A stretch of 16,007 nt of DNA, from the NCBI GenBank assembly GCA_036170655.1, contig JAVHPP010000048.1:1-16007 (forward strand), written 5' to 3'. A model generated the notes under the pieces. It ran no database searches and was not told where the DNA came from. It saw only the letters and a list, made by a program, of their open reading frames with translations. The translations under genes and the position numbers were made by a program. This document shows positions 1,400 to 16,007 of this stretch, one piece after another. Position 1 is the stretch's first letter, and each line of letters begins with the position of its first letter. Source of the stretch: Candidatus Zixiibacteriota bacterium. Its GTDB lineage: Bacteria > Zixibacteria > MSB-5A5 > WJJR01.

Positions 1400-1606
1400 G
1401 GTAGCTCCCTCAGAAATTTGGATATGATGAGTTCTCTGACTGATTTCGTTTGCAACGGACTGGGAACTGACTCTTGCCAACGTCATGATTACCTTCCCGT
1501 TTTCGTCGTACTCTGATGGCTCCCAGGTCCGGGTAGCGTACCAGACACCGTGGGTCAGCAGGCCCATGCGGGCAATCGAGACTCATAAGCATGTTCAAGC
1601 AATCAT

Positions 1607-1625
1607 GTTGACAATCATTATCAAC
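1607..1625. promoter_or_regulatory. Fur-box-like 9-1-9 palindrome (candidate operator)
   Basis: GTTGACAAT-C-ATTATCAAC has one mismatch between arms. The core TGACAATCATTATCA differs at one position from the 7-1-7 Fur consensus TGATAATnATTATCA. It overlaps the predicted -10/TSS of the minus-strand gene. Confidence 0.5.
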
Positions 1626-1652
1626 GATAACTCATTTTCAGTCCGCCGTCAA
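1624..1652 (-). promoter_or_regulatory. Candidate sigma70 promoter for the Cys-rich repeat gene
   Basis: Minus strand TTGACG (1652-1647), 17-nt spacer, TATCGT (1629-1624). Confidence 0.45.
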
Positions 1653-2229
1653 GAGGACTTTTCCTCCCCCACCGGTGTGGAGCGAGCGGGGCCTGGATAA
1701 CAGACGACCGCCAGACACCCCGCAGCTTGGCACAGGTGGCCCTGGGCCCTGCTTCGGGCCTCCTCTCGCGGTCGCTGTTAGAGTATATCGTCACGCCTTT
1801 GAGAATCACGAGCCACAGAATGATTCTGACAAGGGTAGTAACAGGCGGTGACACGTTTTTGACATGGCCAACGACACCTGGTGGCGCTACTGTCGAAATC
1901 CTCAGCCGTCAGCGGTCACTAACGCCGACGGCATCGGACGATCAGGCAAAGATAGCGAGCAGCGTTGCCATCGCCTGGGGCTAGGATTCGCGATTAAAGA
2001 ACCACTTTCATGCGGCGGCCTATCATATTGTAGTGCCAGCGCTTACGTCGTACGCTCAGTTGTGGCTTCGCCCATTCCGATTCGGTATCGAGCATCGGTA
2101 CTTAAGGCGTCAGAACAGGGACGATCCAATATTCCGTCACGGGCAAGCTGAACCGCTCATTTCGCAATGAGTTATAGAAAGCGAGGGAATCACGACAAAT
2201 TCTATCATGACATATTGCAAATATTTTGC

Positions 2230-2259
2230 TTGACACGGCGCCGACGATTCAGAGATAAT
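2230..2259 (+). promoter_or_regulatory. Candidate sigma70 promoter for the pilin-like/secretin cluster
   Basis: TTGACA (2230-2235), 18-nt spacer, GATAAT (2254-2259), preceded by an AT-rich tract. Confidence 0.5.
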
Positions 2260-2529
2260 GGCATGTCACTCAGCCATCGCAAGCCCTACTCGTGCTGGGG
2301 TGACGTGTGTTGCCAAGGAATTAGTTCGGGGAAAAGGATTTCCCAAGAGGGTGGTTTGCCAGTTGTGCTCCGGAGCTGAGGATGCCGGTGCGACAGTCAG
2401 CATATGTCTGCGCGGAGGATCAGAGTGGATTACATAAACGAACGGATTGTTCCCGTGTTCACAGGCATACCCAGTACCAAAGGCCATGTCAATTTGTTGG
2501 CTTCGTTGAACGGGAGACTGAAAAAGCAT

Positions 2530-2556
2530 TTACACTATGCTTACGCGATAGTGTAA
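2530..2556. promoter_or_regulatory. Perfect 9-bp inverted repeat (operator or leader hairpin)
   Basis: TTACACTAT-gcttacgcg-ATAGTGTAA, about 50 nt upstream of the 2609 start. Confidence 0.4.
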
Positions 2557-2608
2557 TTGAACGCATCGATCTGACTGACTCGTACTCTTTATGTTTGGAG
2601 AGAATGGC

Positions 2609-3280
2609 ATGAGTCATCCTTCACTGCGATCCATCTGCATCACGGGCGCCGTCGCTGTCGTTCTCATTCTCACAAGTAATGGGCTGGTAACTGCCGACGG
2701 GATTCGTGCTCTCGCTCCCAAGAACGCTCCACGCAGCGCGCCACGCGGAATCGCTGACAAGAGTGGCAATCAAGGTATGACGAGAGAGGCGATCATCGTC
2801 CGCAAAGGCGACGAACCCATGGGAGTGTCGCTGGGAATGCCGCAACAGGTCCGGGAGCGCCCTTGGGTGGAATGGTCCATCTCATCGACGGCGCTCACTT
2901 ACGCTGTGCGTACCCCCGGGCGTTATGCTTCCCGATGGGGCGCCATCGGTATTCGGTCCAACTCTGCTGTCATTCTTGATTTTGACCACTTTGGCGATCT
3001 GAAGCAGACGACTGACGGTCGCAGCATGGAGATGGAGCTGGGTGTTGCCGAAGGCGCCACGAATCCGAATCAGGTCAATTTCTGTTCCGCGGGAAAGTTC
3101 AACGAGCAGGATATCCACCTGACAAAGGCGCAGGCCGGCGCCTTCCAGTGCGATCTTTGGTGCCGGGTCAACGTGACACGTGCCGTTGGGGCGGGCGACT
3201 ACGAGCGTAAAGCGACGATTACAGTGGCCTTGGTAAACGGATACGACTGGACCGAACTGACAGACGAAACTTCAAAATGA
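2609..3280 (+). CDS. Exported hypothetical protein, pilin-like; paralog of 3437-4213 (223 aa)
   Basis: ATG 2609 follows GGAGAG RBS (track start 2591 lacks one). N-terminal hydrophobic signal. Shares W-x-x-x-S-x-S-x-T...VRxPGxYA...SN..V..D...F..L and a C-terminal R.xV.R...A..Y...A.IT block with the next gene. Confidence 0.8.
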   Translation: MSHPSLRSICITGAVAVVLILTSNGLVTADGIRALAPKNAPRSAPRGIADKSGNQGMTREAIIVRKGDEPMGVSLGMPQQVRERPWVEWSISSTALTYAVRTPGRYASRWGAIGIRSNSAVILDFDHFGDLKQTTDGRSMEMELGVAEGATNPNQVNFCSAGKFNEQDIHLTKAQAGAFQCDLWCRVNVTRAVGAGDYERKATITVALVNGYDWTELTDETSK

Positions 3281-3297
3281 AGGCCATTCTTTTCTGT

Positions 3298-3460
3298 GGC
3301 AGTAGATCGTACCAATACCCATCACATCCGGCGTACTCCGGAAGGAGGAAGTACCATGAAGAAAATACTGTTGTTCACGGCAGTAGATCGTACCAAAACC
3401 CACCACATCCGGCGTAGTCCGGAAGGAGGAAGCACCATGAAGAAAGTACTGTTGTTCACG
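3298..3460 (+). repeat. Tandem direct repeat, 2 x 81 nt, each copy containing a hairpin, an AAGGAGGA RBS, an ATG and the first 8 codons of the downstream gene
   Basis: Copies 3298-3378 and 3379-3459 match at 76/81 nt. ATGs at 3356 and 3437 are in frame (MKKILLFT / MKKVLLFT). Confidence 0.95.
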
Positions 3461-4213
3461 ATGGTCGGCTTGTTCGTCATGGCCGTCTCGGGGCTGGCTC
3501 AGACACCCGTCCCGCCCGTCGGAATCTACGAGGTCGAGGTATTCGATTGCGACTCCGTGACCGGTCTCTACCTCGGCGGGCCCGGGCACCTCGGCCAGGG
3601 CGATTGGTTGGCGCGCTGCTTTGCTTCCAACGAAGCGAAGGGGAACTGCAACAAGAAGAACTGGCTGATCCCAGTCACCGTCCATGCGTCGGTCGCGCAG
3701 TGGATCGATTTCAGCATGAGCGGAACCCGCTGGGACTGGTTTGTCCGCAAGCCGGGATACTACGCTGCCAACTGCATTACTGCCAAGGTGGCGTCTAACG
3801 GCAACGTTGCGATCGACTACAGTGGTTTCGACAGTCTGCGCAGCCTTACATACCCGACCGGGCCCAACACGCCGATTGGGATCGACTACTCCTTCGGCGG
3901 CAGCATCACCGAGGCCGTGGCGAATGGCTGGGTACCGGCTCCCCTTCTCAACAACGACGACGATCTGCTGGTTGAGAACGACTACTGGTACACCAATCCC
4001 GTCGGCGGCGGCACTGGCGGCAATCGGCTCCACGAGAGCTTGACTTGGAAGCTGTTCAACCGGATTCATGTCGTGCGCTGCAACACCGCGTGCGAGTATC
4101 AAAACGTGGCTTTGATTACGCTTGTCGAGGCCGGGCAGAAGCCCTGGATCGAACCGGAACTCGGCGGCTATAAACAGCCCCTTATTGATTGGGTGGGTGT
4201 CCCGATACCGTAG
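3437..4213 (+). CDS. Secreted hypothetical protein, candidate major fibre subunit (258 aa; alternative in-frame start 3356)
   Basis: Strong RBS AAGGAGGA. Classic Sec signal MKKVLLFTMVGLFVMAVSGLA|Q. Six Cys in the mature part, beta-strand-like patterning, C-terminal ACEYQNVALITL. Confidence 0.88.
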   Translation: MKKVLLFTMVGLFVMAVSGLAQTPVPPVGIYEVEVFDCDSVTGLYLGGPGHLGQGDWLARCFASNEAKGNCNKKNWLIPVTVHASVAQWIDFSMSGTRWDWFVRKPGYYAANCITAKVASNGNVAIDYSGFDSLRSLTYPTGPNTPIGIDYSFGGSITEAVANGWVPAPLLNNDDDLLVENDYWYTNPVGGGTGGNRLHESLTWKLFNRIHVVRCNTACEYQNVALITLVEAGQKPWIEPELGGYKQPLIDWVGVPIP

Positions 4214-4242
4214 TTGCACATAACGTGTGACAGGTGAGATCC

Positions 4243-5979
4243 ATGGCCGTCGTAGTCGAATACGTGTGGCGCCCCGTTCGCAAAGAACGGGGCGCCGCCG
4301 CATTGGTTGTGTTGCTGACCGCCATGCTTCTGACGGTCTGGATCAATCCCCCTGTTGCCTTTGCGCAGGGGGATTTCAAGCTTCTCCTAACACCGCAGTT
4401 GGCCCAGATTCAGTTGGGGCCGGGCTCCCGCACGGAACTGAGTTTTCAACTGTCGAACAACGACAAGACGAAGCCGCTCCGCGCGAAGGTCTTTCTCAGT
4501 GATATCAAGCAGGGTATCCGCGGGCAGTACCTGCTCAGCGATTCCGCCATGCCGTATTCATGCGTATCGTGGATGAAGCTGAAGGACACTCTCCTTGAAA
4601 TCCCCGCGAATACGACCGCGGAGGTCAGAGTTCCAGTTAAGGTCCCCGGTTATGCGAAAGGCGGAGCCTACGGCGCCGTCGTCTTTGAGATGTTGCCGGA
4701 GGCGGCGCCACGAGGGGAAAAGCCACAAGCGTCTAACATGTATCGCCTCCGTCTGCCCGCGTACGTGGAGATCGCTATCAAGCGCACCGGTGGCAGCGTG
4801 CGGCGCTTGAAAGCAGGCGAGATCCTGATCGAGACGGCCGCCGACAACGCGGAACTCGCCAAAGAATATGGGAAGGACCATTTCCTTGTGGCGGCAGAGA
4901 TTGAGAACACCGGCAACATTCTGCTCGAAGTTCGCGGGCGGCTCGCGATTCGCGACGAGAAGGGGCATCTGGCGAAATTGGTGCCGCTGGGCGCCGGACG
5001 CGGCGCCATCTTGCCGGGAGCGAAGACCAAGGTGCGGTCCATCCTGAAGCGTCTCAATCCCGGGAAATACACGATTCGCGCCATCATCCAGTACGGGGCG
5101 CATTCTCCCGCCATATCACAGACCACCTTCAATGTGTCCCGTACGGGGGCACAGCGGCTTGGGGGCGTGGACGTTTCGGTCCCCGTGGAAGTCGATATCC
5201 GCCCGGAGTTGATCCGTCTCAACGCTCCGGCCAAGTCTTTCCGCTCACTCGGGCTGACGTTGCTCAACCGTGAAGCGTACCCTGTTGCGATCGATGTGCG
5301 CATCGGGCAATTCTACCACGATATTGATGGACAAGTGTGGACAACACCGATGGCCGACTCGGGCCGGACGATCAAGCGTTGGATGACCTATGAACCGGAT
5401 TCGGTCACCATCGGTCCCAGCCGCCAGCAGAATGTCCGTCTCACGCTCAATGTTCCCGATTCTGCCGCGGGAGGCTATTATGGCTGTGTGCTTCTGATTG
5501 CCAGGCCTTTGGATAGCGCCGGCGCGCCGACTACAGCCATCCCCGCCGAGTTGAATGTGCCGATCTATCTGGTCGTGAATCCGGGTTCGCAGTACAGTGG
5601 TGAAATCGATAATGTTGAAGCAGACCGCACGGGGGGAGGCGTGACGTTCAAAATAGTCGCGCGCAATACCGGCAACATCCATACGGTCGCGACCGGATCT
5701 GTCACAGTTCAGAAGTGGGCGGAGGACAAATCTGTTATCGACAGCCTGATTGTCTTGTCGAAACCGACGTTCGAGGATGTCGGCACGGTGGCAATTGAGG
5801 TCGATTCCGTGTTTATTCTTCCCGGCGAACGGCACATGCTCTCGTCCCAGACGGTTGAGCGGTTGCCGGTCGGCAAGTACAAGGCCATTGTGCAAGTCGC
5901 ATTTGGTCCCAAGCAATCACCCGTGACGAAGGAGAAGGAATTTGTTATCACTAAGCCGGTCGAGCAAAAAGAAGAGTAA
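4243..5979 (+). CDS. Exported protein with two tandem copies of a two-domain PapD/DUF916-DUF3324-like (pilus chaperone-like) module (578 aa)
   Basis: ATG 4243 after AGGTGA. Signal peptide ending VAFA|Q. Both halves contain WM, VP..A.GG.YG, NTGNI, ILPG and GKY motifs. The family assignment is by motif recognition only. Confidence 0.75.
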   Translation: MAVVVEYVWRPVRKERGAAALVVLLTAMLLTVWINPPVAFAQGDFKLLLTPQLAQIQLGPGSRTELSFQLSNNDKTKPLRAKVFLSDIKQGIRGQYLLSDSAMPYSCVSWMKLKDTLLEIPANTTAEVRVPVKVPGYAKGGAYGAVVFEMLPEAAPRGEKPQASNMYRLRLPAYVEIAIKRTGGSVRRLKAGEILIETAADNAELAKEYGKDHFLVAAEIENTGNILLEVRGRLAIRDEKGHLAKLVPLGAGRGAILPGAKTKVRSILKRLNPGKYTIRAIIQYGAHSPAISQTTFNVSRTGAQRLGGVDVSVPVEVDIRPELIRLNAPAKSFRSLGLTLLNREAYPVAIDVRIGQFYHDIDGQVWTTPMADSGRTIKRWMTYEPDSVTIGPSRQQNVRLTLNVPDSAAGGYYGCVLLIARPLDSAGAPTTAIPAELNVPIYLVVNPGSQYSGEIDNVEADRTGGGVTFKIVARNTGNIHTVATGSVTVQKWAEDKSVIDSLIVLSKPTFEDVGTVAIEVDSVFILPGERHMLSSQTVERLPVGKYKAIVQVAFGPKQSPVTKEKEFVITKPVEQKEE

Positions 5980-7387
5980 GACTCTCCAATCCAGCTTGGT
6001 CATCCTCTGGGTGATATCGGTCGCGTGCATGTCTGCGCGTCCAGCAGCGTACGCGCAGGATCTTCTCAACCACGCTGACTCAACGGTCGTGGATACGACG
6101 GTAACGGGTGGTCGGTTAGTCCGCTCGGCGGAGCCACCCCCTGACCGCACACCTGCAGTAGCCGACGACCGGCGTGTCGAGCAGATCGAAACATTGCCGT
6201 CACAAGAAGACCCCGCCGGTGGTGCGTCCGAGTGCCGGGTGACCAACGCGTTTTTCGATACCGACTTGCGTGAAGTCCTTAATACAATCTCGAGTCAGTG
6301 CGGCCTGACAATCATCGCCGATGAGACTGTGACAGGCATAATCACGACTGATCTTGTGGACGTCCCGCTCGAGGAAGCGTTGCACCGCATATTGATGCCT
6401 TTTGGTCTGACCTACCGCTGGATGGGTACATACTACCTGGTCGGTTCCCCACGGCCCGATAACCCGTCATTCCCTTATCTCACCGTGACCGAACTGTATC
6501 GCCCCAGCTACATCAAGGCCGAAGACGTGCCCAATCTCCTGTCCACGCACTATGAACCGTTCTTGCGCATTGACAAGGAAACGAACACGATTTCTCTGAA
6601 TGGTTCTCCAGAATTGATTGCGCGCATCAAGAGGGACCTTGCCGTCGTGGACCGGGCGCCGCGTCAGGTTATGATTGAAGCGCTGGTGACGGAGATGTCC
6701 TCCGATGTCAGTCACCAACTGGGGATTTCCTGGGATCTCAGTGGTTCCAAAGGATCGGGTCAGAGGCTGCAAGCCGGTGGTCTCCCGGGAAGAAACGGGT
6801 CGGCTGACACGTCTCTCTCCATGATCTTCGACCGCATTGGGATCCAGAAGTCAGGATGGCTCGGGAACTATCAAGTCCGGCTGAATGCCCTGGTCACGGA
6901 GGGGAAAGCACACATTCGCGCCAACCCTCGCGTCGCGACCGTGGAAGGCAACAAGGCCAGCATTTTCATAGGGCGTGAAGAGTATTTTTCAATCCTGACC
7001 GGATCTGTCACTTTTGCGTACGCACAACTTGAAGTCATCAAGACGGGCATCGTTCTCACCATCACTCCTTATGTGTCAGAGGATGGCTTTATCACGCTCG
7101 AAGTGGCACCCGAGGTTACGGACGTCATTGGCTCGGGCAACACGGGCCTGCCCATCACCAATAAGCGCAGTGTCAGCACCAAGGTCAGAGTCAGTGACGG
7201 GGAAACCGTCGTGATCGGCGGACTGCTCGTGAAGAACCGTGTGGACATTGTTCGGAAGATTCCTCTGCTGGGATCGATCCCCATTCTGGGGTACCTGTTC
7301 CGGCACACGTCGACGACAGTGGAGGAGAAGGAAATCTCCATTCTCATCACGCCTCGACTCTGGGTTGCGACTCCGGAAAAGCAGTAG
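5942..7387 (+). CDS. Outer-membrane secretin (type II/III secretion, GspD/PilQ family), 481 aa
   Basis: TTG start after AAGGAG, overlapping the upstream gene by 38 nt. Signal peptide ending AYA|Q. STN/N0-like domain (FFDTDLREVL...VPLEEALHRIL), one N3-like domain ending DRAPRQVMIEA, and a secretin domain with ANPRVAT, TGIVLTITP, DGETVVIGGL, KIPLLGSIPILGYLF, ILITPR. Confidence 0.95.
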   Translation: MLSLSRSSKKKSKTLQSSLVILWVISVACMSARPAAYAQDLLNHADSTVVDTTVTGGRLVRSAEPPPDRTPAVADDRRVEQIETLPSQEDPAGGASECRVTNAFFDTDLREVLNTISSQCGLTIIADETVTGIITTDLVDVPLEEALHRILMPFGLTYRWMGTYYLVGSPRPDNPSFPYLTVTELYRPSYIKAEDVPNLLSTHYEPFLRIDKETNTISLNGSPELIARIKRDLAVVDRAPRQVMIEALVTEMSSDVSHQLGISWDLSGSKGSGQRLQAGGLPGRNGSADTSLSMIFDRIGIQKSGWLGNYQVRLNALVTEGKAHIRANPRVATVEGNKASIFIGREEYFSILTGSVTFAYAQLEVIKTGIVLTITPYVSEDGFITLEVAPEVTDVIGSGNTGLPITNKRSVSTKVRVSDGETVVIGGLLVKNRVDIVRKIPLLGSIPILGYLFRHTSTTVEEKEISILITPRLWVATPEKQ

Positions 7388-7814
7388 GTCCGGTCGACTC
7401 ACTGTCCCAACGGTGACAGGGGATTCGCAGCCGTTGCGCACCGTTCCATACTTAATCTAATGTGATTCTTTTACGGCGCGGTGCAACATCTTGTGTGATA
7501 GCGTCTTATGAATATCCAGCAGGCTTCGCCCCCACGGTAACTTCCATTTCACGCCTCCCTGAACAGAAGCACGGTAGTGCCAAGTTGACGCGGATTCAGA
7601 TGCCCCGTCATCGACGATCCGGTCCTCCCCCTTACTAAACTAAAGTGTGATCACGGGACGATCTTGAGGGAGAAAAAGACGCCGCGATTTTGACAATTTG
7701 GGAACACAATAAGAATATTGCTGTTTGAACAGGACTGGGCCATTATCTTCGGCCCGGTTTGAGTCCGCGCAGGGAGCGGCACGCAACAACGAACGGTACC
7801 TAAGGAGGAGCAAG

Positions 7815-8621
7815 GTGAATTCCAAGAATCCAGTTCGGCAGAGCCTTGTCGGTATTGTGATCATGACAGGGATTATCATTGTCAACGGTTGTGGCGGCGG
7901 GTCGCAAGAGTCAGCCAAACCGGCAACACAAACCAGCGGGGCACCCGCGAAAAGCGCCGCTGAGGCGGCTAAGCCGGCCTCCGCGACATTAAAGGGGCAC
8001 ATCACCCTTCAGGGGCAAGTTCCCAAGAACACGGCCATCAAGATGGATGCCGATCCCGTGTGCAAAGGCCAGCATTCCACCGAGGTGACGAGTCAAGACT
8101 ACATCGTTGGCGCTGCCGGCGAGCTGACCAATGTCTTCGTCTACGTGAAATCCGGGGTGAGCGGCGTTTTTCCAGTGCCGGCCGATACGATGGTGTTCGA
8201 CCAGAAAGGATGCGAGTACTATCCGCACGTTTTTGGTATGCGTGTCGGCCAGCCGCTGGCGATCGTCAACAGCGATCAGACGCTCCACAATGTCCACCCG
8301 CAGCCGAAGAACAGCGCGGGATTCAATCTTGGCATGCCCAAGCAGGGGATGCGCATCACCAAGACCTTCAGCGCTCCTGAAGTGATGGTCAAGATCAAGT
8401 GCGACGTCCACTCGTGGATGTCCGCCTATGCGGGCGTGCTCGACCACCCGTTTTTCGCGGTGACGGGCAAAGACGGCAACTTCTCCATCGGTCCGCTGCC
8501 AGCGGGAACCTACACGGTTGAGGCCTGGCACGAGAAGCTGGGGACAATGACGCAAACCGTAACGGTCGCTGATAACGAAGCCAAGGATATCCCCTTTGCG
8601 TTTACCGTGGCGGGTAAGTAG
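7815..8621 (+). CDS. Lipoprotein with cupredoxin-like and carboxypeptidase-regulatory-like domains (268 aa)
   Basis: GTG 7815 after AAGGAGGAG. Lipobox IVNG|C, Ala/Pro-rich linker, motifs DQKGCEYYPHV, HNVH, CDVHSWM, and C-terminal LPAGTYTVEAWHE. Confidence 0.85.
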   Translation: MNSKNPVRQSLVGIVIMTGIIIVNGCGGGSQESAKPATQTSGAPAKSAAEAAKPASATLKGHITLQGQVPKNTAIKMDADPVCKGQHSTEVTSQDYIVGAAGELTNVFVYVKSGVSGVFPVPADTMVFDQKGCEYYPHVFGMRVGQPLAIVNSDQTLHNVHPQPKNSAGFNLGMPKQGMRITKTFSAPEVMVKIKCDVHSWMSAYAGVLDHPFFAVTGKDGNFSIGPLPAGTYTVEAWHEKLGTMTQTVTVADNEAKDIPFAFTVAGK

Positions 8622-8760
8622 AGCGTAATCGTTGCCGAACGGCCCGGTGTATGGTGGCGTGCAGAATGCCGACAGTTATTGTTACGTATGTCAACGCGCG
8701 CGGCCTGCCCGGACCAAACCTATCATCGAAAGAACAGACTTGGGAGCGCGATAGAATCGC

Positions 8761-10524
8761 ATGACTGAAAGCACACAGATTCCGCACGAAGTTCACTCGG
8801 AGCATCATCAGGAGGTCAGCTTCTGGCGCCGGTACGTGTTCTCCCAGGACCACAAGGTCATCGGGATCCAGTACGGCCTGACCAGTCTGGTATTCCTGTT
8901 GTTCGGCTTCTCTCTGATGATGCTGATGCGCTGGCAACTGGCTTTTCCGGGGCGTTCCCTTCCCCTCATCGGCAAGCTGATTGGCGAGACCTTCATGCCG
9001 GGCGGAGTGATGGTGCCTGAGTTTTACAACCAGCTGGGGGCGATGCACGGCACGATCATGGTGTTCCTTGGCGTCGTACCGCTGAGTGTTGGCGCTTTCG
9101 GGAACTACTTCGTGCCGCTGCAAATCGGCGCCCCGGACATGGCATTCCCGAAGCTGAACATGGCCAGTTATTGGGCGTATTTTGTGGGCGGGGTGACCAT
9201 GCTCGCCAGCTTCTTTGTACCGGGCGGCGCGGCCAACTCGGGATGGACGTCCTATCCCCCGCTGGCGGATATTGCCACAACTGGACAGACGGTCTGGCTG
9301 TTCGGAATGGTGTGCTTGATCACATCGTCACTTCTGGGTTCGGTCAATTTTATTGTGACGATCGTCCAGCTTCGGGCGAAGGGGCTGACATTCATGCGCC
9401 TGCCGTTTTTCGTGTGGGCGCAGTTCGTGACGTCCTTCCTCTTGTTGCTGGCCTTCCCGCCATTGGAGGCTGCCGGCGTTTTGCAATTGATGGACCGTCT
9501 GGTCGGGACCAGCTTCTTCCTGCCGAGCGGTCTGGTGATCAGCGGCCAGCCTCTGGCGGTGAGCGGGGGTGGCAGTCCCCTGCTGTGGCAGCATCTCTTC
9601 TGGTTTCTTGCGCATCCGGAGGTCTATGTTTTGATCCTGCCGGCCATGGGAATCGTGGCAGAGATTATCGCCAACAATACCCGTAAACCACTCTGGGGAT
9701 ACCGTTCGATTGTTTATTCGGCCGTGTTCCTGGGATTCATGTCATTCATGGTTTGGGCTCACCACATGTTCCTGACAGGCATGGGCACGGCCATCAGCAC
9801 GTTTTTCCAGACGACGACGATGATCATCTCAATCCCCTCGGTCATCATCATCTCGTCGCTGGTTATTTCCCTGTGGGGCGGATCCATTCGTTTCACGACG
9901 CCAATGCTGTTTGCCCTCGCCTTCCTGCCAATGTTTGGCATCGGGGGGTTGACGGGCTTGCCACTCGGGCTGGCCACATCTGACATACACCTGCATGACA
10001 CTTACTACGTGATTGGCCACTTCCATTATATCGTTGCTCCAGGCACGATATTGGCTCTGTTCGCCGGGATTTACCACTGGTTCCCAAAGATCACCGGCCG
10101 CAAGATGAACGATACACTGGGCCGAATTCATTTCTGGGGCACGTTCGTCTGCATGAACGTGATTTTTATGCCGATGTTCATCCAGGGGCTGGCGGGCGTT
10201 TCACGGCGGCTCTATGATGGCGGCGCACAGTATGCCCACGCTCAGGGGGTCCTGCAATGGAACGTGGTCATGTCGGTTGGTGCCTGGGTCATGTTTGTAT
10301 TTCAGTTGCCATTTATCTACAACCTCTTCCGCAGTATCAAGAAAGGCCAAAAGGTTCCGGAGAACCCCTGGGGGGCGACCACGCTCGAGTGGGCGGCTCC
10401 CTCTCCCCCGCCGCATGGGAACTTCGTCACGCTGCCCGAGGTTTATCGTGGGCCGTATGAGTACAGTGTTCCTGGCGAGGCACGTGACTTCACACCGCAA
10501 CATCAGCAACCGGCAGGAGCCTGA
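8761..10524 (+). CDS. coxA: Cytochrome c oxidase subunit I (A-family heme-copper oxidase)
   Basis: [25 protein letters not shown] and RR motifs; multiple TM helices; DMAFPKLN D-channel entry. Confidence 0.98.
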
Positions 10525-10529
10525 ACGCG

Positions 10530-11120
10530 ATGCAGATCCCATATACATCAACGGCACGACCCGACACTGGTCTCTACAATGCCAAGCTCGGCGTCTGGCT
10601 GTTCCTGGCCTCTGAGGTCATGCTCTTCGGAGCGTTGTTTTCCACGTATGTCCTGCTGCGGGTGGGCGCCGCCGTCTGGCCGCATGGCGCGGACATTCTC
10701 AATGTGCCTCTGGCCACTGTCAACACGATGATCCTGATTGGATCGAGTGTGACCATGGTCATGTCATGGGCTTCTCTGATGATGGGGAAGTTCGGCCGCT
10801 TCCGGCTCTACATGGGGGTGACCATTCTTCTGGGATTCATGTTTCTCGGAATCAAGAGCGTTGAGTACGGCGCCAAGTTTGAGCATCATCTCTATCCGGG
10901 CAACAGCACTTTTCTGGCGATCTACTTTGCCCTCACCGGTCTGCACGGGCTTCATGTCATCGGCGGCATGATCGTCAACGCGTACCTTTGGGTGACGGGA
11001 AGCCGGATGTGGAAGAGTGATCCGCAGCGTTTCACAAACCGCGTCGAGGTCGCAGGCCTTTACTGGCACTTCGTGGATCTCGTCTGGATCTTCCTCTTTC
11101 CACTTCTGTATCTGTTATAG
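10530..11120 (+). CDS. coxC: Cytochrome c oxidase subunit III (short form)
   Basis: [29 protein letters not shown] and [20 protein letters not shown] motifs. Confidence 0.97.
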
Positions 11121-11161
11121 GAGAGTGTCATGGGAGCAGCAACCGGCAAGCGGAGGGCTAC

Positions 11162-11464
11162 GTGAACGAGGCTCATGCAGAGGATATCAAAAAGCATGTA
11201 CGGGCGTACATCGGCGTGTTTGTCGCGCTGGCCCTGCTGACAGTGCTCACTGTCTTCGTCTCGTATCTTGACTTCTCGCGAGGCGGGCACATTACCATCG
11301 CTCTGTTGATTGCCGTGGTCAAGGCCGGGCTGGTGGCGAGCTATTTCATGCACTTGATCTCGGAGAAGAAACTGATCTACGGGGCGCTGATCCTGACGGT
11401 CCTGCTTTTCGCCGCCTTGATGTTCCTGACGTTGTCATCGCACATGGACCAGCGGGGGATTTGA
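11162..11464 (+). CDS. Cytochrome c oxidase subunit IV (prokaryotic CtaF/CyoD-like)
   Basis: GTG after GGAGG. Three TM segments with YIGVFVALALLT...IAVVKAGLVASYFMHL motif. Confidence 0.9.
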   Translation: MNEAHAEDIKKHVRAYIGVFVALALLTVLTVFVSYLDFSRGGHITIALLIAVVKAGLVASYFMHLISEKKLIYGALILTVLLFAALMFLTLSSHMDQRGI

Positions 11465-11467
11465 GTC

Positions 11468-11674
11468 ATGTCGCTGAAAACTTTTCACGTGGGTTTCATC
11501 ACATTGTCAGTATTGCTGGCGTTCGGCTTCGGGGTGTGGAATCTGCTCGACCCGTCGGCTCGCGGAAACGCCGCGTATCTGACTCTGGCCATAGTCGCTT
11601 TTGCCGCCGGGATCGGACTGATTGTTTACGAGATCCGTTTTCTGCGCAAGCTGAAAGGGGTGAGTTTCCTATGA
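11468..11674 (+). CDS. Small 2-TM membrane protein in the oxidase operon (68 aa)
   Basis: Starts 3 nt after the subunit IV stop; its stop overlaps the next ATG (ATGA); two hydrophobic helices. Confidence 0.75.
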   Translation: MSLKTFHVGFITLSVLLAFGFGVWNLLDPSARGNAAYLTLAIVAFAAGIGLIVYEIRFLRKLKGVSFL

Positions 11675-11997
11675 GACGCAAATCTGTTTCTGGGTCGATC
11701 TTCTGCCAGAACGTGTGTTTTAGTCGGTTGGCGCCACGCCTGTTGTTTTTTGCGGGATTGTCGGTCATCCTCCTGCATTCGCGTTTTGCTCAAGCCTGTG
11801 CGGTCTGCTATGGAGCTGCCGATGCGCCCATGACGAATGGAATGAACATGGGAATCCTGACATTACTCGGGACGATCGGGACTGTCCTGCTTGGTTTTGT
11901 GACGTTCTTCCTGTTCCTCCTGAAGCGAGCCAGAAGTGCATCTCGCCGGAGCCAGCCGATGGCTGTCTGGGCTGGGCCGGAAAGGGCTAAAGCATGA
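11671..11997 (+). CDS. Small membrane protein with CxxC after a signal-like segment (108 aa)
   Basis: ATGA coupling at both ends (11671 and 11994). AQA|CAVCYG...GMNMG, then a TM helix and basic tail. This is the C-terminal part of track ORF 11461-11997. Confidence 0.75.
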   Translation: MRRKSVSGSIFCQNVCFSRLAPRLLFFAGLSVILLHSRFAQACAVCYGAADAPMTNGMNMGILTLLGTIGTVLLGFVTFFLFLLKRARSASRRSQPMAVWAGPERAKA

Positions 11998-12746
11998 CAC
12001 ATCTTCTGGGACTGCCACCTGAGGCCTCAGCCCAAGGGGTAAAAGTCGACAGTTTGATTGGCTGGGTACACTGGCTGATGTTGTTGCTCTTCATCGGCTG
12101 GGGAACGTTCTACGTTATCTCATTGATACGATTCCGCCGCTCCCGGCACGCCAAAGCAGACTACACCGGCGTCAAGAGCCATACGTCGAGCTACCTGGAG
12201 ATCGGCGTGGCCGCCTTCGAGGCGATCCTGCTGATCGGCTTCTCAATCCCTTTCTGGGCGAAATCTGTCGTCGCCTTGCCCAATGAAAAGGACGCCGTGG
12301 TCGTGCGGGTTGTCGCCGAGCAGTTCCTCTGGAATGTTCACTACCCCGGCCCCGATGGGATATTTGGCCGCGCGGACGTCAAGTTGATCGACTCGGAGAG
12401 CAATCCGTTGGGAATGGACCACACCGATCCCAACGGCAAGGATGACATCATCACGATCAATCAGCTTCATCTTCCGGTCGACAAGCCGGTGATCATCTAT
12501 CTGTCCAGCAAGGATGTCGTGCATTCTTTCTCTCTGCCGGTGATGCGGGTCAAACAGGATGTCATCCCCGGGATGAGCATTCCCGTGACCTTCACGCCGA
12601 CGGTTGTTGGGAATTACGAAATCGCATGTGCGCAGCTTTGCGGATTGGGGCATTACCGGATGCGGGGGTATCTGATCATTCAGACAGCCGAAGATTTCGC
12701 CGCCTGGCTGGCCGAGCAGGAAGCCGCACTGAATCCGCCGAGTTGA
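11994..12746 (+). CDS. coxB: Cytochrome c oxidase subunit II (CuA, no fused cytochrome c)
   Basis: Two TM helices, QFLW, DVVHSF, CAQLCGLGHYRM CuA ligands; no CxxCH. Confidence 0.97.
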   Translation: MTHLLGLPPEASAQGVKVDSLIGWVHWLMLLLFIGWGTFYVISLIRFRRSRHAKADYTGVKSHTSSYLEIGVAAFEAILLIGFSIPFWAKSVVALPNEKDAVVVRVVAEQFLWNVHYPGPDGIFGRADVKLIDSESNPLGMDHTDPNGKDDIITINQLHLPVDKPVIIYLSSKDVVHSFSLPVMRVKQDVIPGMSIPVTFTPTVVGNYEIACAQLCGLGHYRMRGYLIIQTAEDFAAWLAEQEAALNPPS

Positions 12747-12830
12747 GTGCGCAGCATGGCGGCCGACCGACTGGCCGATGACCAGCTTCTGTCCGTATCG
12801 CTGAATCACGGTGACGTAAGCACTTTCCCC

Positions 12831-13802
12831 ATGACTGAAACAAAACACACTCCGCGCTGGCTGGGACGTCTCTCCAAAGCGACGTTTGCGGCCACACTGG
12901 CTCTGGTATTCGTTGGTGGACTGGTGACCAGCACAGGCTCCGGCTTGGCGGTCCCGGACTGGCCGTTGTCGTTCGGTCAGTACTTTCCCCCTATGCAGGG
13001 CGGTGTTCTATTCGAGCATGGCCATCGCATGGTGGCTGGGGCCGTGGGCATCTTGATGACGATCCTCGCGATCGCAATATGGTTCGTCGAGCGGCGACGG
13101 TGGGCCAAATGGCTTGCTTTGGGGGCGTGGTGCGCCGTTGTGATCCAGGCGATTCTGGGCGGGATCACTGTCCTGTACAAGCTGCCCACGGCGGTTTCTG
13201 CGGGCCATGCGGGATTGGCCACAATCTTTTTGTCGCTGACCGGAATACTCGCTCTGATCAACTCCGAGTTCTGGCAACGGGAAAAGCCCTTGTCCTTTCA
13301 CGCGTCGCGTTCGCTGGTGTGGCTCTCTTGTGCGGCCGCGTTCATCGTCTTTGTTCAGATCATTCTGGGGGCGACGATGCGGCACATGGGGATGGGGCAG
13401 CAGGGACTGGCGATCCCCGATTTTCCGCTCGCGTACGGCCGCCTGATCCCGCCGCGGTTGGATCTGGCGCCCATCCTGGTGCACTTTCTGCATCGTGTGG
13501 GCGCGCTGGTCGTCGGCGGGTTTATCTTCGTGCTGTCGTGGAAAATCAGCCGTCTGCACGGAGTGCCCAAAGTGATCCGTTCTTTATCGCGTTTGCTGCC
13601 GTTGCTGTACATTGTGCAATTCGCTTTGGGTGCTTTTACGATTTGGACAATTCGCGGTGTCACTGTCACGACATTTCACGTTATGGTTGGCGGACTCACA
13701 TTTGCGCTGACCGTGCTGCTGGCGGCGCTGCTCTTGCGGTATCAGGTGCGTGAGCGTCCGCTTGAGGCGATGTCCCCGCTCATGGGAGAGATCGCCGCGT
13801 GA
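12831..13802 (+). CDS. ctaA: Heme A synthase (COX15/CtaA)
   Basis: GGLVTSTGSGLAVPDWP, EHGHR, H in SAGHAG, HFLHR, TTFHV. Start uncertain (12747, 12756 or 12831). Confidence 0.92.
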   Translation: MTETKHTPRWLGRLSKATFAATLALVFVGGLVTSTGSGLAVPDWPLSFGQYFPPMQGGVLFEHGHRMVAGAVGILMTILAIAIWFVERRRWAKWLALGAWCAVVIQAILGGITVLYKLPTAVSAGHAGLATIFLSLTGILALINSEFWQREKPLSFHASRSLVWLSCAAAFIVFVQIILGATMRHMGMGQQGLAIPDFPLAYGRLIPPRLDLAPILVHFLHRVGALVVGGFIFVLSWKISRLHGVPKVIRSLSRLLPLLYIVQFALGAFTIWTIRGVTVTTFHVMVGGLTFALTVLLAALLLRYQVRERPLEAMSPLMGEIAA

Positions 13803-14743
13803 GCGCTTTTTCGTACCCGCCTTCCACGCGAGGATCCGGCCAGGATTCCGCTGTCGCAGCATGTGGTCGTTCCGTTGGGGATGTCATAGGGCACATCGCC
13901 GATTACCTGATCCTGACAAAACCACGGATCGCGGCGCTGGTGCTGGTGACAACGTGGGTTGGATTTCTCATGGGTTCGCCGGGGCCGCTGGTGGTCCCGC
14001 TATTGCTGCACGCATTGCTTGGTACCGCCATGGTGTCGGGCGGGGGCGCGGCGCTCAACCAGTACCGGGAGCGTGTCTGGGACGGGAGAATGCGTCGCAC
14101 TTGTGAGCGGCCACTTCCGGCGGGACGGCTTGAACCGGTCGCGGCGCTTGCCTTTGGTCTGACACTGACCGTGTTGGGATGGGTATACCTCGCGCTTTTT
14201 GTCAATGTCCTCACGGCACTCCTTGGTCTGGCGGCAAATGTGATCTACGTTCTGGCCTATACGCCGCTCAAGCGCATGACCTCGTGGTGTGTGCCGGTCG
14301 GCGCCGTTTCAGGAGCCCTGCCTCCGGTGATGGGTTGGGCGGCGGCACAGGGACACCTTGATATTGGTGCATGGGTCATTTTCGCGGTGATGTTTGTCTG
14401 GCAGATTCCTCATTTTATCGCGATCGCCTGGCTCTACCGTGAAGACTATGCGCGGGCTGGGTTTGCCGTCGCGTCACTGGTCAGTCCCGATGGACGCTCG
14501 GCCACCTGGCAGATTCCCATCTATGCATCGATACTGGCGCTCATTGTAATTCTGCCAACAGTTCTGGGCATGGCGAATATCGCGTACGTGATCGGCGCCC
14601 TCATGCTGGGGCTGGGTTTTCTGGGCGCTGGGATCCGGGTAGGCAACATGGACATGACAGGGTATATGCGCCGTGTGTTTCACGCCTCGCTGGTGTACCT
14701 GCCGCTTCTGTTGATCTGGCTGGCAGTGAATCGAAGCGTTTGA
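13799..14743 (+). CDS. ctaB: Protoheme IX farnesyltransferase (heme O synthase, CtaB/CyoE)
   Basis: LTKPRI, LNQYRERVWDGRMRRTCERPLPAG, YTPLKR, GALPPVMGW, WQIPHF, DYARAG. Confidence 0.96.
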   Translation: MSAFSYPPSTRGSGQDSAVAACGRSVGDVIGHIADYLILTKPRIAALVLVTTWVGFLMGSPGPLVVPLLLHALLGTAMVSGGGAALNQYRERVWDGRMRRTCERPLPAGRLEPVAALAFGLTLTVLGWVYLALFVNVLTALLGLAANVIYVLAYTPLKRMTSWCVPVGAVSGALPPVMGWAAAQGHLDIGAWVIFAVMFVWQIPHFIAIAWLYREDYARAGFAVASLVSPDGRSATWQIPIYASILALIVILPTVLGMANIAYVIGALMLGLGFLGAGIRVGNMDMTGYMRRVFHASLVYLPLLLIWLAVNRSV

Positions 14744-14851
14744 CGAGAGGGAACCGCTGCCGCATCTTTAGTGTCTCTAACAGAATGAATGTCAACGTAC
14801 GCCATGATGGTGGAGAGCAATCTGGATCAATCAGGATGCCATCAATTCCGC

Positions 14852-14921
14852 GGGAGGGCGAGGCTCCTGCCGAACCTTTCCCTCCCCCAGCCAAGAGGCT
14901 CGGCGGGAGCCTCGCCCTCCC
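14852..14921. repeat. REP-like long palindrome (26-bp arms, 18-nt loop)
   Basis: GGGAGGGCGAGGCTCCTGCCGAACCT (14852-14877) and AGGCTCGGCGGGAGCCTCGCCCTCCC (14896-14921) are complementary at 24/26 positions; no U-tract follows. Confidence 0.8.
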
Positions 14922-15019
14922 ATCGCTGGGCGGTCAACTGACCCCGCCATATTTATCAGTTGCGCGGTTATTTTGTTGCAGGTTCTTAGTAGCGCGGCCC
15001 ACTTGATCGGGCGCCGGAT

Positions 15020-15988
15020 ATGACGCAATCTGATCACACAACCCATCCCGCTGTCGTCGCGGAGGGCCTGTCGCACGCTTATAATGGGCGCGTTGCGCTG
15101 GCGGGTGTCAGTTTCACCGTCGCGCCGGGAGAATTGTTCGGCATTCTTGGTCCGAATGGCGGCGGCAAGACGACGATGTTCAAGATTTTATCCACGCTGC
15201 TTCGTCCGGATAGCGGGCGGGCTCGCATCTGGGGACTGGACGTCGTCTCACAGCGCGATCAGGTCCGTCATCTGATCGGCGTTGTCTTTCAGTCGCCCGC
15301 GCTCGATGTCAAGCTCACGGTGCGCGAGAATCTCCTCCATCATGGCCATCTTTATGGAATTGCCGGGCGTGCGTTGCGCGATGGCATCGACGCGTGCCTT
15401 GACCGGATGTCGCTTCGCGATCGTGCGAGCGATCTCGTGGAAACACTGTCCGGCGGCTTGCGCCGACGGGTGGAGCTGGCCAAGGCCGTCTTGACCCATC
15501 CCCGCGTTTTGCTGATGGACGAGCCCACGGCGGGATTGGACCCGGGCGCGCGCGACGATTTCTGGCATTTGATCAACACGATGCGTATGGACACCAGTAT
15601 GACTGTGATTCACACGACACATCATCTCGAAGAAGCTGACATCTGCGACCGGATCGGGATTGTCGACCGTGGACAACTGGTTGCGCTCGATTCCCCGGCC
15701 GCTCTCAAATCGGAAATCAAGGGTGAAATGGTGACACTCAAGGGCGCCGCCCTTGCGGCGCTGCAGCAACGTGTCACCACAGAGTTTGACGTCCACGCAC
15801 AGATCGAAGGCGACAGCATCCGGATTCTATCGCCCAACGGGCATGAGTTGGCGGCGCGGGTCAAGTCGGTCTTGGGCGACGCTGTCGACAGTATCAACAT
15901 CGCACGACCCACGCTGGCCGATGTGTTTCGTCAGCGCAGCGGGCATGAGTTCTGGACCGGGACAACAAAGAATGGGGAACCGTCATGA
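15020..15988 (+). CDS. ABC transporter ATP-binding protein (ABC-2 / DrrA-NodI-like exporter)
   Basis: Walker A GPNGGGKT, Q-loop VFQ, signature LSGG, Walker B LLMDEP, H-switch TTH. Confidence 0.95.
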   Translation: MTQSDHTTHPAVVAEGLSHAYNGRVALAGVSFTVAPGELFGILGPNGGGKTTMFKILSTLLRPDSGRARIWGLDVVSQRDQVRHLIGVVFQSPALDVKLTVRENLLHHGHLYGIAGRALRDGIDACLDRMSLRDRASDLVETLSGGLRRRVELAKAVLTHPRVLLMDEPTAGLDPGARDDFWHLINTMRMDTSMTVIHTTHHLEEADICDRIGIVDRGQLVALDSPAALKSEIKGEMVTLKGAALAALQQRVTTEFDVHAQIEGDSIRILSPNGHELAARVKSVLGDAVDSINIARPTLADVFRQRSGHEFWTGTTKNGEPS

Positions 15989-16007
15989 TCATGACGGCGA
16001 CACCAGA
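15985..16007 (+). CDS. Start of next CDS (truncated), probably the ABC permease
   Basis: ATGA overlap with the ATPase stop; only MIMTATP is visible; product inferred from context. Confidence 0.4.

Follow-up and report, generated by a model that had tools for sequence, protein, structure and literature searches.

The 16,007-nt window analyzed here is the entire contig JAVHPP010000048.1 of a 2.6-Mb Candidatus Zixiibacteriota genome with a completeness score of 100%. It carries a cassette of four genes encoding a minor pilin (P0001), a major pilin (P0002), a tandem chaperone (P0003) and a secretin (P0004). This feature is real and conserved. The cassette probably encodes a dedicated surface-fibre system, in which chaperone-primed subunits are joined by donor-strand exchange and the fibre leaves through its own secretin. 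An earlier note, made from the DNA letters, had proposed such a hybrid of chaperone and secretin for two pilin-like subunits, a double chaperone-like protein and a secretin. These assignments were borne out by profile, fold and domain searches. The four open reading frames (ORFs) are co-oriented on the forward strand, with the 29-nt gap (4213/4243) and the 38-nt overlap (5942–5979) described there. Each protein contains a single hydrophobic stretch, at its N-terminus, which agrees with the export signals that the note had read; this call is based on hydropathy.

The genes and their linkage were followed by sequence across other genomes. A query with the pilin found it in 9 of 41 related genomes and gave 49 loci across GTDB species. 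Forty-four of these loci held a full chaperone, and a secretin lay downstream in 39 of the 44 (the secretins of G002, G003 and L025 were located by six-frame search). Of the five exceptions, four run into a contig end within 201 nt, and the fifth is a satellite pair. Strong matches to a chaperone query (E ≤ 2e-18) were obtained in 22 of the 201 genomes of the phylum, and all 16 loci fetched from this set carried a secretin, four of them being already among the pilin-query loci. In metagenomes, the secretin was present in 53 of 74 loci, some of which are duplicates. A further 18 were cut by contig ends, and the remaining three (L222, L230 and L233) had been matched through single-module proteins of 312–348 amino acids, L222 being a contig of 1.9 kb. 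These figures are counts rather than tests, and related loci are not independent. As counts among kin, they point to a chaperone-secretin linkage far beyond chance. Cassette records came from Zixiibacteriota, Thermotogota and diderm Bacillota, and pilin homologues were found in Thermotoga neapolitana, RQ2 and RQ7. Omp85 was present in 27 of the 29 carriers tested.

Several loci depart from the simple layout. One locus with a chaperone, room for a further gene and no secretin (L065) was rejected as a true exception, as it is near-identical to the downstream half of L191, where the secretin lies upstream. Second pilin-chaperone pairs or whole second cassettes follow the first one in L191, L194, L196, L213 and L065; in L191 and L196 the second pair or cassette comes after a histidine-kinase-like gene. 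A divergent subfamily (L148, L149, L151, L152 and L132) has other pilins and a reshuffled gene order, with the secretin kept; secretins bearing tetratricopeptide repeats were seen in L148 and L149. One cassette (L057) lies on a 2.7-kb contig titled as a bacterium of the candidate phyla radiation (CPR; Nealsonbacteria). Its genome has neither Omp85 nor a full secretin match, and misbinning is therefore likely.

P0004 was identified as a secretin by PF00263 (E 1.9e-41) together with N0/STN and N3 domains. It scored below every NCBIfam secretin cut-off, the best-scoring models being PilQ and GspD. Its best solved relatives were GspD/PilQ (E 1e-33 to 1e-29), RcpA (2e-22) and a phage export protein (1e-16). 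P0004 might be the displaced PilQ or GspD of this genome, with incidental neighbours, and the best NCBIfam scores would fit this, as would the cataloguing of a Thermotoga RQ7 copy, TRQ7_08710, as competence pilQ (PMC5637354 Table 6). This explanation is almost certainly wrong, being largely refuted by the secretin tree and the neighbourhood counts. The genome holds three secretins, and the other two stand in their own gene contexts, one of them following PilM and PilO genes. The linkage is kept across phyla, and each of four secretins fetched without regard to context (L083, L084, L090 and L091) had a chaperone upstream. A quick tree used 102 rows, with 14 rows dropped as duplicate or short. 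For a careful tree, 11 long-branch or degenerate rows, including the divergent cassette secretin L136, were left out, and 91 rows were thinned to 62; L132 was labelled as cassette after its gene context was seen. In the careful tree, 28 cassette and 34 other secretins were split at 100/99. Both trees were built without Tad, type III secretion system (T3SS) or phage secretins, and the comparison secretins came from the same genomes. Within that sampling, the cassette secretins appear to be a group of their own.

The usher family PF00577 was absent from this complete genome (0/1) and from the other carriers scanned (0/50), so that the homologues are linked to secretins rather than to ushers. Weak single-module chaperone matches were obtained in about 90 of the 201 genomes of the phylum. 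All four single-module loci fetched (L153–L156, from G116, G157, G102 and G162) encode a PapD-like chaperone, several DUF4402-like pilins and a partner of ~857 amino acids, and have no secretin. From its size and position, this partner is probably a divergent usher missed by PF00577. The ~857-amino-acid family was not found in the genome studied here; among 54 carriers, three had strong matches to it, located away from the cassette. Thus, among the loci fetched from one phylum, single chaperones stand with an usher-like gene and tandem chaperones with a secretin. The same genome holds a second small module (L157; contig C47, 14017–16078), with a 179-amino-acid secreted pilin-looking gene and a 305-amino-acid single-module chaperone-like gene (E 2e-7 to the tandem-chaperone profile). 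It also includes a 164-amino-acid gene with a type IX-like C-terminal sorting domain. Neither a secretin nor an usher was seen in the region listed, and the contig ends just upstream.

The pilins were characterized mainly by structure prediction. Neither P0001 nor P0002 was named by Pfam and NCBIfam scans, PDB sequence searches with the pilin profiles gave no credible match, and a plasmid search gave no match. Homologues of P0002 were collected in two ways: a word search returned 42, all uninformatively named and without a Pfam domain, and a profile search returned 368 cluster representatives (E ≤ 0.001). The P0002 model, built from 150 sequences, reached a predicted local distance difference test score (pLDDT) of 91. 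Foldseek returned seven matches at E ≤ 0.001, namely five CfaB chains, CS17 and TasA. In an unbiased VIA search, CS17 and Csu filaments came on top at Z 7.8, with a root-mean-square deviation (rmsd) of 11.9 over 127 residues for CS17 and 2.9 over 114 residues for Csu, and pilins made up nearly all of the top 30 rows. The model aligns from residue 76 on to residue 1 of CS17. Residues 64–89 are modelled confidently in the monomer, yet without a strand partner, and residues 76–88 show alternating hydrophobic conservation ending in A-S-V-A-Q-W. In a covariation set of 262 sequences (Neff, the effective number of sequences, 199), S85-E220 was the top-ranked pair. The antiparallel register a+b=305, pairing residues 75–85 with 230–220, was the best among 256 diagonals, with a signal at every second pair, and it won in 9 of 10 subsamples. 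An N-terminal strand lying antiparallel to the last strand matches the geometry of donor-strand exchange as reported for the Elr pilus and for chaperone-usher pili (bioRxiv 10.64898/2026.10.17.759780). Together, the predictions support P0002 as an incomplete immunoglobulin (Ig)-like pilin with a chaperone-usher-type fold and an N-terminal donor strand, in line with the Ig/pilin fold expected for the subunits by the earlier note. The A-x-x-Y-x-x-x-A-x-I-T motif that the note had placed at the end of both proteins is present in both subunits; it does not end the protein, being located in the last core strand, with ~28 residues after it in the major subunit. Four cysteines of P0002 are conserved (Cys71, Cys113, Cys215 and Cys219), one of them on the N-terminal extension, and an inter-subunit disulfide is possible.

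P0001 and P0002 are paralogues (profile E 4.6e-33), and the donor motif separates the two positions in the cassette. It was found in 52 of the 56 chaperone-proximal pilins that could be anchored (10 others could not), and in 4 of the 46 anchored distal pilins (16 others could not). All four motif-bearing distal pilins come from loci with duplicated major pilins. The distal frames vary in length between about 230 and 745 residues; their pilin domain is C-terminal, and 27 of the 46 anchored ones have >220 residues ahead of the pilin motif. The product of the first gene therefore looks like a tip subunit without a donor strand, and because a variable N-terminal payload is common in its family, we propose that it caps the tip of the fibre.

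P0003 is an internal duplication, its first and second halves aligning as homologues in hhalign (probability 100, E 6.6e-40). It matched the WxLIP models of Pfam below cut-off (PF06030, E 8e-5; PF11797, E 0.17) and WxLIP sequences of the PDB at E about 0.008, and the Pfam scan gave no PF00345 match. The best structural match of its model (pLDDT 81) was also WxLIP (9i25/9i1y, Z 14.5/14.1), at rmsd 5.9 over 230 aligned residues for Z 14.5. The structural matches fell mostly on the second module. P0003 is thus predicted to be closest to WxLIP and to contain a PapD-like two-domain fold twice. A C-terminal hydrophobic anchor was found by hydropathy in none of 58 chaperones (0/58).

From these parts, the following scheme is proposed. 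All four proteins would cross the inner membrane by Sec, as their N-terminal hydrophobic stretches suggest. In the periplasm, the tandem chaperone would complete the incomplete Ig fold of the pilins and prime them. Strand 74–88 of each major pilin would then slot into the neighbouring subunit, antiparallel to that subunit's last strand, a step supported by the covariation. The growing fibre would exit through the secretin, and, as in chaperone-usher pili, the driving force would be the energy of folding released in strand exchange. In those pili, chaperone priming stores the energy of elongation (PMC13721041), so that no ATPase would be required in principle. Exit through the secretin is suggested by the strict linkage, the cassette-specific secretin group and the absence of ushers. 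More speculatively, the two chaperone modules may stand in for the two docking sites of usher periplasmic domains. We regard it as evenly balanced whether a co-opted secretin here does the work of an usher without a motor. The doubled chaperone would then hold two successive subunits at the secretin's N-domains and catalyze donor-strand exchange, and polymerization alone would open the gate and expel the fibre. The hybrid route of the earlier note is thus supported by linkage, pilin fold and the separate secretin group; chaperone-pilin binding, the polymer, its passage through the secretin and its independence of a motor are the parts that we infer. A role in adhesion or biofilm is likely.

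Several points weigh against this scheme. The pilin Z of 7.8 lies within the background range stated for VIA (7–8), and the rmsd to CS17 is 11.9. When the top covarying pair was removed, register 305 won only 4 of 10 subsamples and was no longer the best by median; covariation, moreover, is blind to whether a contact is intra- or intermolecular. PapD-like domains are also matched by other proteins: after WxLIP, the next structural matches of P0003 (Z 11–12.7) were ciliary/centrosomal ASH, MSP and glycosidase domains along with PapD-family chaperones, so that the fold alone is no proof of chaperone function. With long branches included, the quick tree separated cassette and other secretins at a support of only 80–92 in the SH-like approximate likelihood ratio test (SH-aLRT). 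The proposed scheme has no account of how a secretin gate opens without a motor, and T2SSF platform genes are present in 51 of 54 carriers, which makes a borrowed type II/IV motor the main rival. Finally, about 23 of 38 genome cassettes have a fifth, barrel-like gene after the secretin, a gene that the window lacks.

The main rival reads the cassette as the substrate module of a machine encoded elsewhere, either a type II secretion system (T2SS) or a type IV pilus (T4P), whose inner-membrane motor pushes chaperoned pilins through the dedicated secretin for polymerization outside. Well-studied secretins do work with inner-membrane motors. This includes those of T4P and Tad (PMC13721041), and the genome studied here has two PilB/GspE-like and three PilT-like loci elsewhere. 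Of the earlier note's description of a system with no usher or ATPase, the part on the ATPase held for the locus; elsewhere in the genome, ATPases and platforms exist. In the window, no assembly ATPase, inner-membrane platform or class III pilins were found, nor did the flanking ORFs scanned contain any; the 50 flanking ORFs scanned also lacked a PilP/GspC-like coupler. Furthermore, the motors of this genome already have two other secretins, and 3 of the 54 carriers are without T2SSF, although these are metagenome-assembled genomes of unstated completeness. A borrowed motor is on balance unlikely.

The fifth gene stands alone in Bacillota; in Thermotogota and others it is joined to the rear of a degenerate secretin-like part. 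Examples are L021 (7499–8512), L051 (12014–13174), L058 (12362–14164) and L036 (10377–12689), and L036 has a FadL/PorV-like region fused ahead of its secretin. The true pore or anchor could be such an outer-membrane β-barrel, encoded by the fifth gene or by a paralogue elsewhere, with the secretin as an accessory. The frequency of the gene and its fusions would fit this, as would weak paralogues of the FadL/PorV-like region on five contigs of the present genome. However, the gene is absent from this window and from beside about ten related cassettes, while the secretin is constant, and its barrel nature was judged from the sequence pattern. FadL-type barrels are also narrow and plugged. We consider this alternative very improbable.

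It is also improbable that no long fibre forms, and that the pilin-like proteins and chaperone build a short periplasmic or surface complex (a plug, scaffold or adhesin stub) on the secretin. WxL clusters have long been read as static platforms (bioRxiv 10.64898/2026.10.17.759780), and a filament of the present system is unobserved. On the other hand, a donor strand that is conserved in the major subunit and absent from the tip-like one, with majors duplicated in some loci, matches the open-ended polymers of CFA/I, Elr and Pam.

Compared with known systems, the cassette lacks features that define chaperone-usher, WxL/Elr, Pam and type II/IV systems, and would work most like the first two. It shares with the WxL/Elr pilus of Enterococcus an usher-free, chaperone-guided donor-strand exchange, predicted here; a chaperone that structurally matches best the WxLIP type, to which ElrE (DUF916/DUF3324) belongs; and tip subunits in which a variable payload precedes a pilin domain at the C-terminus. 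In contrast, the Elr chaperone is single-module and membrane-anchored, with sortase anchoring in monoderm cells, whereas the chaperone here is doubled, has no C-terminal anchor and is encoded beside a secretin. The Pfam scan gave no PF13731 (WxL) match at E ≤ 1 on the pilins, and in the Atlas a WxL-bearing cluster came up only at 0.88, which is a lead. Elr is reported as monoderm and confined to Bacillota, mostly Bacilli, and the word secretin does not occur in the main text of that report (bioRxiv 10.64898/2026.10.17.759780).

Alternate and archaic chaperone-usher pili (CFA/I CfaA-CfaB-CfaE, CS17, Csu and CupE) resemble the predicted system in their pilin fold, antiparallel N-terminal donor strand, periplasmic PapD-like chaperone and tip subunit without a donor strand. 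The present system differs in having no usher in cassette or genome, a tandem chaperone and extra N- and C-terminal pilin parts, and its pilins share only 10–22% sequence identity with theirs. The Pam pilus of CPR bacteria is likewise an usher-free donor-strand pilus, with PapD/FimC-like chaperones and pilins that have a domain ahead of the donated strand. Unlike P0003, however, PamC/D carry a membrane anchor, their host cells have no outer membrane, and the available part of that report proposes no trans-envelope machinery and no secretin (PMC13278184). T2SS GspD, T4P PilQ, Tad RcpA, T3SS SctC and filamentous phage pIV share the secretin domain with N0 and N3, but the cassette has no ATPase, platform, alignment proteins or class III pilins. 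In T. maritima, PilQ has been found in the toga, and periplasm-spanning tubes were assigned to T4P/T2SS (PMC10160955). A literature search for T. maritima locus tags returned only the RQ7 paper (PMC5637354).

The features of the locus are listed in Table 1.

Table 1. Features of the cassette region, in window positions.
Feature	Position	Strand	Description
Sigma-70-like promoter match, 11/12	2230..2259	+	Consensus match only, upstream of the cassette
Minor, tip-like pilin P0001, 223 aa	2609..3280	+	Signal-like N-terminus, C-terminal pilin domain, no family donor-strand motif
81-nt direct duplication, 94% identical	3298..3459	+	Covers ribosome-binding site and start of the major pilin
Major pilin P0002, 258 aa	3437..4213	+	Signal-like N-terminus, small N-terminal part, putative donor strand, predicted incomplete Ig pilin domain, short tail
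Predicted donor strand, P0002 residues 74–88	3656..3700	+	Unpaired in monomer model; covaries antiparallel with strand 219–233
Tandem chaperone P0003, 578 aa	4243..5979	+	Two predicted WxLIP/PapD-like two-domain modules, ~residues 44–302 and 312–572
Secretin P0004, 481 aa	5942..7387	+	Minimal N0-N3-secretin layout; TTG start uncertain; apparently cassette-specific group

Sigma-70-like sites numbered 9 in 1400–7900, compared with 3.3 ± 1.7 in shuffles. The 81-nt duplication creates two in-frame ATGs (3356 and 3437) at the start of P0002, and it could alter pilin translation or add an N-terminal extension of 27 residues. An assembly artefact as its source was rejected, because single contigs in X1, X3 and X4 span the repeat without an indel; one copy is missing in a related strain (X5). 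The cassette is bounded as the earlier note had described, by a divergent region of ~1.2 kb (1400 to 2608) and by downstream oxidase-like genes. Beyond the divergent region, a contig-cut gene on the reverse strand (2–1399) encodes a secreted protein with Ig-like (Big_9) and Cys-rich repeats, which was not seen as a conserved neighbour of the cassette. The genes in 7725–16007 are unrelated to it. The first of these, the only one of that stretch scanned, encodes a carboxypeptidase-regulatory-like lipoprotein; the others we take to be genes for a heme-copper oxidase subunit, heme A synthase-like and heme O synthase-like proteins and an ABC ATPase.

All parts of the cassette are known folds, and their combination is not described in the literature searched: a full-text search, with most subscription journals outside its range, found no report in which donor-strand pilins are coupled to a secretin. 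Donor-strand pili are known to reach the surface by an usher in Gram-negative bacteria, by sortase anchoring in Elr and by membrane anchoring in Pam, and secretins are known as the exits of ATP-driven machines. If the proposed scheme is true, the cassette would provide a fourth surface route for donor-strand pili and a secretin without a motor of its own. In RQ7, the pilin TRQ7_08720 lies two locus tags from TRQ7_08710, and this case suggests that the cassette system may include some of the secretins that are currently assigned to PilQ or GspD in deep-branching diderms. Two questions become testable with the cassette: whether strand-exchange energy suffices by itself to gate a secretin, and whether the usher is required as a catalyst or simply as a pore. 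Thermotoga carriers are available as cultured organisms for such tests. If the motor-free reading is true, the cassette would represent a new class of pilus assembly and secretion, a chaperone-secretin pathway common to Thermotogota, diderm Bacillota and Zixiibacteriota.

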